DNA of 64,000 nucleotides from Eledone cirrhosa (taxonomy: Eukaryota). This document shows, in pieces, positions 1 through 63,381 of the stretch (positions are counted from its first letter, which is position 1; each line of letters starts with the position of its first letter). The position numbers were made by a program, and so were the translations under genes. The stretch is taken from positions 214,520,001 to 214,584,000 of the forward strand of contig OZ024741.1 in assembly GCA_964016885.1 (NCBI GenBank), in the 5' to 3' direction. Under the pieces are notes generated by a model. That model was not told the origin of the DNA. It saw nothing but the letters and a program-made list of their open reading frames with translations, and did not search any database.

Positions 1-265
1 ATCCAGTGCTTTTATCGAGAATGACACAGCTAGAGACTTATAGAATACTTAGCTGTGTACAGGAACTGGTTTGAAAGAGCGGTTGCCGGTCCGGCAGAAA
101 TTAGAAATTGGAATAAATGCTCTGAAATAGCGATATATATGTGAATATAGACATAGAATATTCGAAAATATTCTGTATGTTTATAATAAACATTTTGAAG
201 ACCTAATCGCTATAGAATAGAATACGTCACGTATTACAATTAGATTCTCGATAAAAGCAAGGGAA

Positions 266-308
266 GTAATCTACGCGTTTCATTCTCGTTAGAAATCATC
301 AGGACTAC
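266..308 (-). ncRNA. Minimal type-I hammerhead ribozyme (310-bp unit)
   Basis: Reverse complement: GTAGTC-CTGATGA-T TTCT AACG AGAA T-GAAA-CGCG-TA-GATTAC. Stem I GTAGTC/GATTAC, palindromic stem III ACGCGT, GUA site. Confidence 0.85.
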
Positions 309-881
309 ATATCCAGTGCTTTTATCGAGAATGACACAGCTAGAGACTTATAGAATACTTAGCTGTGTACAGGAACTGGTTTGAAAGAGCGGTTGCCGGT
401 CCGGCAGAAATTAGAAATTGGAATAAATGCTCTGAAATAGCGATATATATGTGAATATAGACATAGAATATTCGAAAATATTCTGTATGTTTATAATAAA
501 CATTTTGAAGACCTAATCGCTATAGAATAGAATACGTCACGTATTACAATTAGATTCTCGATAAAAGCAAGGGAAGTAATCTACGCGAGAATGAAACGCG
601 TAGATTACTTCCCTTGCTTTTATCGAGAATCTAATTGTAATACGTGACGTATTCTATTCTATAGCGATTAGGTCTTCAAAATGTTTATTATAAACATACA
701 GAATATTTTCGAATATTCTATGTCTATATTCACATATATATCGCTATTTCAGAGCATTTATTCCAATTTCTAATTTCTGCCGGACCGGCAACCGCTCTTT
801 CAAACCAGTTCCTGTACACAGCTAAGTATTCTATAAGTCTCTAGCTGTGTCATTCTCGATAAAAGTAAAAGCACTGGATAT

Positions 882-924
882 GTAGTCCTGATGATTTCTA
901 ACGAGAATGAAACGCGTAGATTAC
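882..924 (+). ncRNA. Minimal type-I hammerhead ribozyme (310-bp unit)
   Basis: GTAGTC CTGATGA TTTCTAACGAGAAT GAAA CGCG TA GATTAC. Confidence 0.85.
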
Positions 925-1191
925 TTCCCTTGCTTTTATCGAGAATCTAATTGTAATACGTGACGTATTCTATTCTATAGCGATTAGGTCTTCAAAATGT
1001 TTATTATAAACATACAGAATATTTTCGAATATTCTATGTCTATATTCACATATATATCGCTATTTCAGAGCATTTATTCCAATTTCTAATTTCTGCCGGA
1101 CCGGCAACCGCTCTTTCAAACCAGTTCCTGTACACAGCTAAGTATTCTATAAGTCTCTAGCTGTGTCATTCTCGATAAAAGCACTGGATAT

Positions 1192-1234
1192 GTAGTCCTG
1201 ATGATTTCTAACGAGAATGAAACGCGTAGATTAC
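1192..1234 (+). ncRNA. Minimal type-I hammerhead ribozyme (310-bp unit)
   Basis: Identical to 882-924, 310 bp downstream. Confidence 0.85.
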
Positions 1235-58950: not shown

Positions 58951-59029
58951 AATATATATATATATATATATATATATATATATATATATATATATATATA
59001 TATATATATATATATATATATATAGTTCA

Positions 59030-61025
59030 AAGTAACCAATCTTAAATAGAGAGATATTGGTAGGATAGGAGAGATTGGTGAAGGTATTAGAAGTCAAAGC
59101 TTAGAAGCGGGTGCTGGATGTGCATTATGCAGTGGAAAGTAGTTGGAAAACTGGGTTTATGCGGAGGTTAGGTGTACAGAGCTGGAAATATTGAGTAGTT
59201 AAGCAAATCCAGACCACAAGCTCACATAGGAGACATTAGTCGAAGAGTATCAGTATTAAGTGCAGTTTCATATAAAAAAAAGAGAGGATAAAATGTCAGT
59301 TTACAATTGTTTCACTACTCCATACAATGTTTCTGGATCAATCGATGATAATATCATTATTGATTTGGTGCAGAGAAAGATAATTAACATAGAATAATAT
59401 TATGGAGCAGCTCCTCAGAACTTGAAGTTAGATAATGAAAATATTAATATGTATAAAGTAGAAATAAAATAAAATAAAATAAGAGGGTTGCGTGTCCGTA
59501 AATAATCGTCAGATTAGCAGGTCCCTAGATGAGGTCCCTTGGCACTGGGAAATTCAAGTGTATGTTATAAGGAACCGTTACATATCTGTCGAGGCTGAAA
59601 TTAACAATGCGGCCAAACGCACAACAAGCTGGCTTCCTGTAAGGAAATTACCTTATTGTACAGAGATGGGTTTCAAGAGAGGCAACTCCTTGAAGATCCA
59701 AATGCGACAATGAGAGTTGTAACTGAGATAATGTCAAAGAGTTAGCTTATAGGTAAAGTTATAATGAGATATGTGACTAAGATAATGCAGGGAGGTAACT
59801 TACATGTGTTTTCGTAGTGGACTAACTATGTTTTAGTTTGTTAGTTATAGGGAGGAGCGTGATTAAATGATAGGCTAAGGTGGGTCAAATATTATGGTAG
59901 CGAAGGAGCTCGCTCTGCGGTGGTGGCAGTTGATGACCAACTCATTCCTGTCATTCATGGGGGAGGGGCCTTGACAGAGTTATGTGATAGGCCTCGGTGA
60001 GACAGAGATCACAACAATTTCTTCTCCCGTTAAACGTTGGAGATCTAGTCAAAATAGCCCAAGTTAGTGAGTGTTCAATGTTGGCCAGTTTAAGATTTTT
60101 AACGAGCCTAGCTAGAGAAGTAGAGCATCTATGGCCAGGGTCGCGGAAGGAAAATGAGTGCGCGTTATATCGAACCTTAAATGGGTTAGATGTAGAACCA
60201 ATATAGGAGCTAGTAGATGAGGCCGTTCTAACGATGCACCTATATACGATATTAGGTGTAAGTCACTACCCGTTAAGCGGGCATGCAGTGGGGTTACGGC
60301 AGTTGCAATTAGGATTGCGATTAGTGGGAGCAGGGTTGTTTAAGCTGTGCTGCTCGTGTGTACTAATGGGATTGGAGGGGGGTTTCTACTACTAGGATGA
60401 GTATTGATCTGGTTGCATGGTGTACTTATAGGCGGTGGTGGTGCCGCAGAGGGGAGCTATATTTGTTTAGTTTATGATGGTTACTAAATGCGATGTGGCT
60501 AGTTAAGTTCGGTGTGGTGGAGAAGGAGATTTTAATATTGTTTTTATTAAAGTTTGTAATATCTATGGTTGGGGGGGGGGGGGGTTAGATAGGATGGAGA
60601 AGAAGCATTTAGGGATGTTAGTAATTAAATTAGATGAGGAAGGGTGGTTAAGCCAGGTGATTTTTCTAGGCCTGTTACTTCTGTGGGGTCTAGCAGAATC
60701 AGCAGGGGCATAATCTGACGATTATTTACGGACATGCAACCCTCTTATTTTATTTTATTTTATTTCTACTTAAAACATATTAATATTTTCATTATCTAAA
60801 TTCAAGTTCTAATGAGCTGCTCCATAATATTATTCTATGTTAATTATCTTCCTCAGCACCAAATCAATAACGATAATACCATCGATTGATCCAGAAACAT
60901 TATATGGAGTAGTGAAAAAATTGTAAACTGGCATTATTACCCCCTTTTTTATATTAAACTGCACTTAAAGTTGATACTTTTAGACTAATGTCTTCTATGT
61001 GAGCTTGTGGTCTTGATTTGCTTAA
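59030..61025 (-). mobile_element. Penelope-like element 3' part with inverted pLTR copy
   Basis: Minus translation of ~60680-59920: RKITWLNHP, KISFSTTPN, CNCR..CPLNG, NIVYRCIV..YIGST..FKVRYNAH..SF, CDLCLTE. 59200-59520 is inverted at 60715-61025. Confidence 0.8.
59298..59422 (-). ncRNA. Hammerhead with very long stem II
   Basis: Reverse complement: AGTT CTGAGGA GCTGCTCCATA...TATGGAGTAGT GAAA CAATTG TA AACT. Decayed + copy at ~60804-60930. Confidence 0.7.
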
Positions 61026-62624
61026 TTACTGTATATATATATATATATATATATATATATATATATATATATATATATATATATAAAATACAATATGTTG
61101 AAAAGGTAACACACTAGAGACAGATAAATCAGGGAAAACCACCAGTGTATGGAATCTATAACCTATGGAAGTAAGGGTAGAGACACGATAATTAAAACTA
61201 TAAACTAAAGTGTAAATACCCACCTCTATAACTATATAACACACGTACAAATCCAAAGAGATCTGATTCGCCAATAAGTTGTTGACAGAAATGAAATAGC
61301 CCATGGTTCATCAGCGTGTGTAAGGCTATACATTCCAGACAACTCTAAGAGAATCTATCTCTCTATATATATATCTCTATATATATATATAACGAAGGAA
61401 GTATGGTAAGGAACCAGATGGACCATAATGCACCAGAGTACTCGATACTTTGGGTAGTAGAGTGGGTAATAGGAAAATGTTCAGGACCCGACGCACAGCT
61501 CAAGCCGAATTCGACGGGTATTGCTGGACGCGTGAGTCCAGAAATAGCCGTCGAAACGGCTTGAGCTTTGCCGTCGGAGTCCTAAACATTTTCATATATA
61601 TATAAAATTATAAGTTTGAACAATAGTCAGACAAAATTTATCAAATTTTTTCTTCTTAGTCCATAGAAATCAACTCGATAAATAATCATTTAAATGGAGC
61701 TAACTTAAAAATGTAACTTCGAAGAAATAACAGATAAAAGTTATCTATTTTCCTCTATGAGGAACAGTCAGATAAAATTTACCTCGTCTTTCCTCTTAGT
61801 CCGGAGAAATTAACTAGACAAATAATGAAAGTGTACTCCCGGCATCTGCGGTCCGGTTATTCGCAGAATTTTCCTTAAAACCACTTATCCGCGATATTTT
61901 ATGCCTTTTTTTCGTGGCAATACATATTCTTTCATGTTTTTTCACGGTAAATTATTAATAACAATATACCGTATTTACCGGCCTATATTTTAGTTATGTT
62001 TCGACGTTTATAGGCATTTTTAAGGATCACGCCCAATATTCGACGTTTCTTACATTTCGTGGGTGCTCCAGGAACATATATACACAACATATATAAACAA
62101 GACATATCTGAATACCCTTCGAATCGAATGCAGAGTCGGGTTCAATCTGTAACAGATCCTACCTCGAGCTGATCGACGAGAAACATATGTAATATTGTAT
62201 GTTAACAAATTGTGATTTGATACAATACTGATTGCTCGTTCTATATAATATATATATATATATATATATATATATATATATATATATATATATATATATA
62301 TATATATATATATATATATATATATATATATATATATATATATATATATATATATATATATATATATATATTATATAGAACGAGCAATCAGTATTGTATC
62401 AAATCACATATATATATATATATATAAATATATGTATATATATATATATATATATATATATATATATATATATATATATATATATATATATATATATATA
62501 TATATATATATAAAATTTCAGGTTATCAATAATGTAGTCATAATATATCGTTACGTTAGAGATGAACATCGTACGTGCAGGTTTGCTCAACGAGTATAAA
62601 TTATATTCCGGAGAAAATGTAGAA

Positions 62625-62918
62625 AGGATGAATATAAAATGAAAGTGCTTTTTTTAAAAAAGGAATTTATTAGGTATTGACATATGTTTCTGTAACAGAC
62701 TGAATACCTATGTATCGCTGCTTGCGTAATCATATAATGTTAGCAAGTATTCTGAAGAAGTGACAACTGATTATACATTTGCTATCGAATACTTGCTAAC
62801 ATTATATGATTACGCAAGCAGCGATACATAGGTATTCAGTCTGTTACAGAAACATATGTCAATACCTAATAAATTCCTTTTTTAAAAAAAGCACTTTCAT
62901 TTTATATTCATCCTTTCT
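62625..62918. repeat. Fold-back element in (TA)n
   Basis: ~62625-62752 is inverted relative to 62788-62918; CTGAAGA lies at the start of the loop. Confidence 0.8.
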
Positions 62919-63381
62919 ATATATATATATATATATATATATATATATATATATATATATATATATATATATATATATATATATATATATATATATACAT
63001 ATAAATATATATATATACTAATAATAATAAATTTGATGACTAAAATCCAAAGAGGGCTCGATAAGGATAAATATATATCAAATATATAAGAACCCTAGAG
63101 CAAATATTTATTAACATAATAGATTAAAGTTTAAGCAATGAATGGCTGCTTTCACCATTAACGGGATCTTCTCAAACTCAATTTCAGCAGATCCCGTTAA
63201 GGGTGAAAGCACCGATTCTTTGGTTAAACTTTAATCTGCTATTTTAATATAAATACATACACACACACACACATATATATATATATATATATATATATAT
63301 ATATATATATATAGGGTGGGTAAAATTCCCGAGATCCATGGACGAGTTCTCTCAAGCGGTTTCTGTCCCTCATTATCGCTA

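Follow-up and report, generated by a model that had tools for sequence, protein, structure and literature searches.

The 64,000-nt window analysed here, from the 3.0-Gb genome of Eledone cirrhosa (contig OZ024741.1, positions 214,520,001 to 214,584,000), contains many two-armed, inverted insertions of Penelope-like elements (PLEs) and of small tandem hammerhead-ribozyme repeats, joined head to head and set in (TA)n tracts. In nearly all classifiable cases, one arm ends at the distal 3' end of its family (site A) and the other at the proximal 3' end (site B). The window was compared with an outside sample of 800 kb, taken blind at fixed round coordinates together with stretches adjoining the window, giving 864 kb in all. 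Negative coordinates lie upstream of the window start; labels of the type L0xx, L1xx and L2xx denote genome loci fetched by family, and b-numbers denote blind pairs or inverted repeats. A type I hammerhead descriptor gives 27 matches in the window and 90 in the 864 kb, with 0–1 in each shuffled set. Grouped by nucleotide similarity, the 90 hammerheads form 26 clusters; judged in this way, the hammerhead families are distinct from one another, yet members of one class.

Three tandem hammerhead families are present in the window. The 466-bp retrozyme array consists of a minus-strand left arm (28774..31743), with six hammerheads and end A at unit position 351, and a plus-strand right arm (31735..34078), with five hammerheads and end B at unit position 277; Rfam Hammerhead_HH9 matches all 11 units, six minus then five plus, with E 1.4e-5, which is under the gathering score. 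In the 310-bp family, the left arm (1..587, minus) extends to -823 and ends in TA at unit position 208 (distal), and the right arm (586..1367, plus, hammerheads at 888 and 1198) ends in TA at unit position 182 (proximal). The 320-bp family is two-armed at 10994..11353, where the left end is (CA)n and the right end is A in TA, and at 19486..20348, with a minus arm (19486-19707) ending at A and a plus arm (19710-20348). The latter arm abuts a 5'-truncated Hydra-type PLE (20349..22362, plus) comprising a GIY-YIG fragment, an AT-rich 3' untranslated region (UTR), and the f3 hammerhead pseudo-long terminal repeat (pLTR). Across 19486-22362 the retrozyme arm is fused to the 3' 2 kb of this coding element, and the remainder of the retrozyme is not seen past the TA; this join, a single case, may have arisen by a template switch and would then identify the enzyme that mobilises the retrozyme.

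The remaining two-armed insertions include 3' ends of coding elements. In the case of F3, the 3' end of a Hydra-type coding PLE, a short minus arm without hammerhead (2580..2798) ends at B (-86), and a long plus arm (2799..3742) ends at A with an 86-nt tail, the whole of 2580-3742 being 3' UTR of the coding element. Other F3 insertions at 6940..7154, 17934..18113 (arms not nested), and 63019..63249 carry A on the left and B on the right. F4 occupies 3824..4231, with a minus arm (3824-3932) ending at B, a plus arm (3932-4231) ending at A, a tail of ~157 nt, and a long-stem-II hammerhead that is cut at the arm junction. The f2 family is two-armed at 6661..6855 (minus arm A, plus arm B, hammerheads at 6787 on the minus and 6799 on the plus strand) and at 14727..14833, where a tail piece on the left meets a hammerhead-to-B piece on the right and the arms have no sequence in common. 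At 12952..13224, an f3 insertion, the pLTR of the Hydra-type L130 family, ends at B on the left and at A on the right, the right arm being tail alone. The f14 insertion (62513..62922) has A left, B right, and a long-stem-II hammerhead at 62752. Within 59031..61036, a coding PLE has a long minus arm with end A, a hammerhead at 59418 and GIY-YIG at 59969-60551, and a short plus arm (60711-61036) with end B. The Neptune-type coding PLE 3' end at 34993..35723 (plus; GIY-YIG, hammerhead at 35480, end A) is single-armed, and the f5 insertion at 39536..39821 is a symmetric palindrome with both ends at B, which breaks the one-of-each rule. An abundant palindromic family at 7352-7535, 19244-19430, and 61392-61584 possesses an 80-nt one-sided tail, and no hammerhead or open reading frame (ORF) was seen in it.

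Window fragments at 20349, 34994, 59969, and 17516 match ORFs with reverse transcriptase (RT) and GIY-YIG endonuclease domains, and these matches identify four or more of the window families as 3' ends (pLTRs) of coding PLEs. The L120 ORF matches RVT_1 (E 5e-4) and GIY-YIG (E 3e-4), in neither case reaching the curated cut-off, and P0001 matches GIY-YIG (E 9e-4); the L130 and L131 ORFs have no Pfam match, but P0001's domain is present in them at 87% and 72%. According to Craig et al. (2021, PMC8557442; this and the other papers cited are drawn on through parts of their text), the Hydra clade is recognised by RWK-like and DKT motifs, a CxCX5C linker, CxxC and CxH around E and N, and the lack of CCHH. 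By eye, P0003 contains RWR, DKT, and CxCX5C, and the F3 ORF contains CxCX5C, CxxC, and CxH; the zinc-finger motifs of the L120 ORF (CX4CxxC, two C and two H visible), set against the Neptune-type pattern of a CX2-5CxxC linker and an endonuclease CCHH, fit Neptune and Nematis alike. By motif rather than by tree, two ORF types are assigned as Hydra-type and one as Neptune-type, and a placement of F3 and L130 in Neptune was dropped given the Hydra motifs. The two endonucleases give 52,130 and 29,342 first-look genome candidates, which are not copy numbers. The f3 hammerhead flanks the L130 ORF on both sides, the f3 family being the pLTR of this element, and the Neptune-type 3' end carries the f4 hammerhead; a search of the F3 3' region for a core-like match found no hammerhead. 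The original prediction had proposed a separate pathway of unrelated small ribozyme RNAs. That proposal is not supported in this form, given the coding origin of at least four families; since coding PLEs of two types follow the same insertion rule, the phenomenon is PLE insertion.

The 466-, 320-, and 310-bp tandem families have no ORF, each unit has a type I hammerhead, and by sequence they fit the animal non-LTR retrozymes, which are tandem, non-coding 300–500 bp units with a minimal type I hammerhead and a proposed PLE origin (Cervera and de la Pena 2020, PMC7229834; Li et al. 2026, 10.64898/2026.07.22.740005). The arms of the 466-bp family cross the predicted hammerhead cleavage site many times. 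Its unit (window 31938-32403) is present in sequencing runs of 17 organisms, reflecting either wide spread or close kin; in four runs it is tandem and mostly 95–99% alike, in one it ends on TA at the identical site A, and no RNA dataset is among the listed datasets containing it. A genome search that skips common words gave no match for the 310-bp unit, a family that rests on the window and one sampled locus.

The nine inverted structures listed in the original prediction all exist, and all nine are divergent, with the minus arm left and the plus arm right. The hammerhead, which had been named as the source of polarity, is unreadable in two of them: 2583-3742 has no core-like match and is oriented by the RT-GIY-YIG ORF upstream in other copies, and at 3838-4080, where the junction interrupts the core, polarity is taken from family copies with an intact CTGATGA. 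Because of their one-sided tails, the listed structures are wider than first given (corrected limits -823..1367, 2580-3742, 3824-4231, 6661-6855, and 59031-61036), and further divergent structures lie at 6940-7154, 12952-13224, 14727-14833, 17934-18113, 62513-62922, and 63019-63249. The 3' ends usually point outward into (TA)n as claimed, except that the 10994 end is (CA)n and the right arm of 19490-20345 enters a coding PLE fragment. The statement that no convergent pair occurs is incorrect: same-family convergent pairs, each flanking (TA)n, are found in the window at 10429/12982, at 14649-14701/14850-14906 (14649..14906, with TA tracts and an f2 insertion between the arms), and at 62215-62246/62373-62404 (62215..62404, with a 124-bp (TA)n between the arms), the last two oriented by reading the sequence.

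Pairs were defined as same-family, opposite-strand hammerhead neighbours at most 3 kb apart. Divergent pairs outnumber convergent ones by 33 to 5 outside the window (binomial p 2e-6), an excess that had been set beforehand as the test, and among pairs without a TA tract between them the 800 kb contain 28 divergent and 0 convergent. Short interspersed elements (SINEs), taken as a control, give 6 divergent and 5 convergent pairs, with 18 of 121 copies near TA. Adjacency to (TA)n exceeds the local density, as predicted: (TA)5+ lies at most 200 bp 3' of 110 of 155 hammerhead markers, against 18% of random positions. Neighbours of different families in the blind 800 kb are mostly convergent (27 against 7 divergent), as expected where separate elements aim their 3' ends into shared TA tracts; the same-family convergent pairs would likewise stem from independent insertions that hit a common TA tract. 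The use of full-length references brought up one convergent pair that lacks TA (b160), at a fold-back within a Neptune-type copy. All two-armed loci are divergent in the 466-bp family (13/13, among 20 loci from a targeted search), the 320-bp family (23/23, among 40 loci counted by hand), and F4 (12/12, among 23 loci from a targeted search). The divergent polarity rule is real and holds genome-wide.

Each family has two fixed 3' ends. The 3' ends on TA are bimodal in nine of ten references, the tenth being without tail by construction, and A and B are separated by 26–165 nt depending on the family, a distance that corresponds to the known PLE tail. Both ends are used about equally in three families (15/15, 7/9, and 8/9), and independent choice would therefore make no more than 50% of pairs mixed. 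Of the 38 divergent pairs in the blind sample, which come from nine families, 30 are classifiable; 29 of these have mixed A/B ends (p 3e-8), and the lone A/A call of this set is A/B when read by eye. Mixed ends were likewise found at 11 of 12 loci of the 466-bp family, 8 of 8 Neptune-type loci, 11 of 12 F4 loci (the twelfth with an interrupted tail), and 9 of 10 F3 loci, where the query is biased to A. The nine earlier-listed structures comprise six A/B, one B/B (39536-39821), and two with a disturbed end. Convergent pairs are uncoupled (AA 2, AB 2, BB 2). A hairpin between A and B was considered as a shared feature and is present in the 466-bp family only.

The arms of one insertion carry traces of a shared source. 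Loci of the 466-bp family have locus-private variants common to both arms, and in eight Neptune-type pairs the arms have 2–35 minority variants in common, against a mean of 0.1–3.7 with other loci; Neptune-type arms also resemble one another more closely than they do most other copies. Some arms are 100% identical, and others differ from each other by up to 12%. Neither arm lies inside the other at 11 of 17 testable blind loci, 3 of 12 in the 466-bp family, and 4 of 8 of Neptune type. At L193 and L200, the A arm does not reach the length of the tail, and it has no sequence in common with the B arm. Arm lengths vary by locus, and the central junctions are distinct in 12 cases among 13 loci. The junctions of the 466-bp family show microhomology of 0–3 nt in 9 of 13 cases and small insertions or a mismatch in 4; over these 13 junctions, the microhomology is not distinguishable from the chance expectation (null mean 0.74).

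Several individual loci add detail to this variation. L032 and L033 have different haplotypes and an identical central junction (unit positions 164/380). In the 12-unit arm of L022, 285T occurs in the inner units and 326G alternates in the outer units, which hints at a dimer template or a later local expansion. The F4 arms in L181, L189, and L190 start at -323 to -332, directly 5' of the hammerhead core, and these positions may mark a defined RNA 5' end. A clustering of 5' ends at the hammerhead cleavage site was rejected, as none occurs in the 466-bp family and that of f2 is a reference artefact.

The explanation that we favour, with a probability of roughly 60%, is twin priming: the two ends left by cleavage of (TA)n would each start cDNA synthesis on a shared RNA source, at one or the other of two fixed sites. 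The GIY-YIG domain would cut both (TA)n strands, for which the anole element PAc offers an in vitro precedent. One 3'-OH would then start at A and the other at B, 26–165 nt upstream, the observed ends presumably marking the priming sites, and the site pair probably reflects two active sites of an RT dimer. Each cDNA would halt at a variable point, as the observed arm lengths suggest, and tandem or circular templates would give many units. The cDNA 3' ends, joined in the observed junctions by 0–3 nt of microhomology or a few extra bases, would finally be completed by fill-in. Two-site twin priming would necessarily yield head-to-head arms of which just one has the tail. Failure of one of the primers would leave a single-armed copy, and the non-coding hammerhead repeats likely borrow the PLE enzyme. 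The two-ended insertion of the original prediction is thus supported by the one-of-each ends, the shared variants, and the non-nested arms, but not in its break-healing form. A wider proposal, which we hold to be evenly balanced, is that PLEs routinely integrate by programmed twin priming, in which an RT-endonuclease dimer engages a single RNA through two internal sites of fixed position and extends the two (TA)n ends together; inverted pLTR and one-sided tail would then be the signature of one reaction, and multi-kilobase two-armed retrozyme arrays would be written in one step from small, possibly circular RNAs. Since retrozyme arrays bear the same insertion signature as coding PLEs, it can be argued that the arrays are written at insertion and not grown later.

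A number of observations weigh against twin priming at two sites. All the evidence is drawn from finished insertions. Many arms overlap on the template, unlike those of L1 twin priming, and such overlap calls for displacement of a strand, a multimeric or circular template, or an additional RNA. In F3, the same-source signal is weak (0–4 variants in common in 11 pairs), and among the 20 loci fetched for the older 320-bp family just 10 are cleanly A/B, most others having an end elsewhere and being unclassifiable. End use is also unclassifiable in 8 of the 38 blind pairs. Exceptions occur at L022 and L096 (A/A) and at 39536-39821 and L100 (B/B), and in a family-blind scan 18 of 79 TA-abutting inverted repeats look symmetric, partly as artefacts of TA within the element (e.g., b66, b74, and b158). 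Three of the 29 mixed pairs, from the palindrome family at 7352, are oriented by TA adjacency alone, and one pair is its own reference. No tail hairpin common to the families was found in six tails (z -1.9 to +1.8). Furthermore, the PAc start site is the same for both strands, and coupling was outside the tests of that paper (Frangieh et al. 2024, PMC11167929).

The closest rival is dual priming, in which each target end primes on its own RNA molecule within an asymmetric dimer (an A subunit and a B subunit), both RNAs coming from one active source. We regard it as unlikely, though to be taken seriously: it predicts the identical A/B coupling, explains overlapping arms without strand displacement, and is named for L1 in the part of Meyer et al. 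(2010, PMC2837659) drawn on here, and the chimera at 19486-22362 is an instance of two RNAs taking part in a single event. It is disfavoured by the locus-private haplotypes that are common to both arms although many haplotypes exist, and by the tail-only A arms abutting B arms at L193, L200, and 12952-13224, which are the outcome of one RNA and two primers. In themselves, the finished insertions fit one RNA molecule and two RNAs from one source alike.

Self-priming is improbable as the general route. It assumes one priming event, after which a folded-back cDNA or antisense RNA serves as its own template and the second arm joins TA at a TA-like site, and so it needs one arm to be nested in the other. 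As neither arm lies inside the other at the blind, 466-bp, and Neptune-type loci counted above, fold-back is excluded at those loci, and the central microhomology of merely 0–3 nt also speaks against it. It may still account for a minority of loci, given perfectly symmetric cases such as 39536-39821, near-symmetric centres in F4, the short arm of L022, which is nested and has variant 285T of the inner units, and the variants common to both arms, which it explains as well.

Another rival, a form of the break healing offered in the original prediction, is that spontaneous breaks in fragile (TA)n are repaired without an endonuclease by RNA-templated synthesis from both ends; it is very improbable. 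The strong TA association, the longer tracts at insertions, and an inverted target-flank duplication at L034, one clear case of 38, agree with it; the start sites, by contrast, are fixed and family-specific, and together with intact GIY-YIG domains among tens of thousands of candidates they favour cuts made by the element. The pattern is confined to PLE-type RNAs, SINEs being without it, and TA targeting has been tied to the PLE endonuclease linker (PMC8557442). That the palindromes are miniature inverted-repeat transposable elements of DNA type or assembly fold-back artefacts is hardly credible, for terminal inverted repeats in TA and some 100% identical arms are outweighed by junctions (12 distinct in 13 loci) and arm lengths that vary between loci, asymmetric ends, arm divergence of up to 12%, and RT ORFs inside the arms.

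The (TA)n target contributes in a more limited way than proposed. The share of sequence lying in tracts of at least 10 bp is 6.6% for the window and 5.4% for the sample from outside it. Those adjoining the 3' ends of ten families have a median of 29 bp against 16 bp, and they are 101 of 1926 tracts; given this small share, and a preference for long tracts that would explain the longer adjoining ones equally well, the idea that insertions account for the (TA)n abundance is not supported as stated. Tract length does not differ with insertion age (medians 29 and 29). Seven of eight initiation sites checked end in 2–5 nt of alternating T/A, against a background of 22%, with few arms each, and these TA-like overlaps suggest that a symmetric target helps both ends to pair. 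Self-complementarity of (TA)n as the cause is not borne out, as rotifer PLEs with ordinary 8–10 bp target-site duplications (TSDs) are usually head-to-head too (PMC3846280), and TA may merely help. TSDs are unreadable within (TA)n. In a survey of 38 loci for inverted or direct duplication of the target flanks, L034 was the one clear case: its right flank (2027-2080) is a 54-nt inverted copy of the left flank (1364-1417), including the non-TA interruptions, which suggests that a 3' end in TA copied the opposite end of the target before it primed.

The elements themselves are of known kinds, and the mechanism would be a variation on a known one. Endonuclease-bearing (EN+) PLEs have been described with an inverted 5'-truncated copy, an optional 30–40 bp tail, and a (TA)n bias, and the formation of inverted pLTRs and tails was called an open question (PMC8557442); compared with these, the tails here are 26–165 nt, and A/B coupling, same-source arms, and non-nesting are counted. 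In target-primed reverse transcription in vitro, PAc (Poseidon, Anolis) cuts and extends both strands, starts at two RNA sites that delimit the tail, as A and B do here, and is predicted to form a dimer (PMC11167929); in the portions of that paper drawn on, there is no statement of one site per end in a single insertion, and its start sites are not homologous to the target, whereas overlaps of 2–5 nt are suggested here. In Adineta vaga, Penelope elements are most commonly head-to-head with the tail on one inverted pLTR, for which the authors proposed self-priming with an antisense template (Arkhipova et al. 2013, PMC3846280). The non-nested arms found here exclude that model at most testable loci; TSDs are visible in that species, in contrast to those in TA. 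In L1 twin or dual priming, the second target strand primes internally to give an inverted 5' arm, the first site is the poly(A) tail, and the arms do not overlap (PMC2837659), whereas here both sites are fixed and internal and the arms usually overlap. Searched by term, and as far as they were available, the main texts of PMC7229834 and 10.64898/2026.07.22.740005 contained no account of two-armed inverted insertions.

Head-to-head arms, the one-sided tail, and TA targeting are already published, and the A/B coupling, same-source arms, and non-nested arms were met in no paper searched. The openly accessible main texts searched hold no statement of A/B coupling or twin priming for PLEs. Two-site twin priming would explain the long-noted shape of PLE insertions, and the counts relate the pair of start sites that PAc uses in vitro to the opposite ends of a single insertion, with the published self-priming model ruled out for most testable loci. 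Retrozyme arrays become tied to PLE enzymes by a common insertion signature, beyond sequence likeness. A two-ended enzyme for target-primed reverse transcription, related to telomerase, would be of interest for RNA-templated genome writing.

Other features of the window are as follows. A single-strand tandem of a hammerhead family with long stem II lies at 57882-58577 with its 3' end in TA. A 322-bp direct repeat (27801-28122 and 34394-34715, 97% identical) flanks the 466-bp array asymmetrically. The minus strand at 43349-46771 holds an unbroken 1140-aa ORF, which we take to resemble a non-LTR retrotransposon RT with a C-terminal endonuclease. Two decayed copies resembling long interspersed elements, 73% alike and in opposite orientation, occupy 23921-26713 and 47071-53585.

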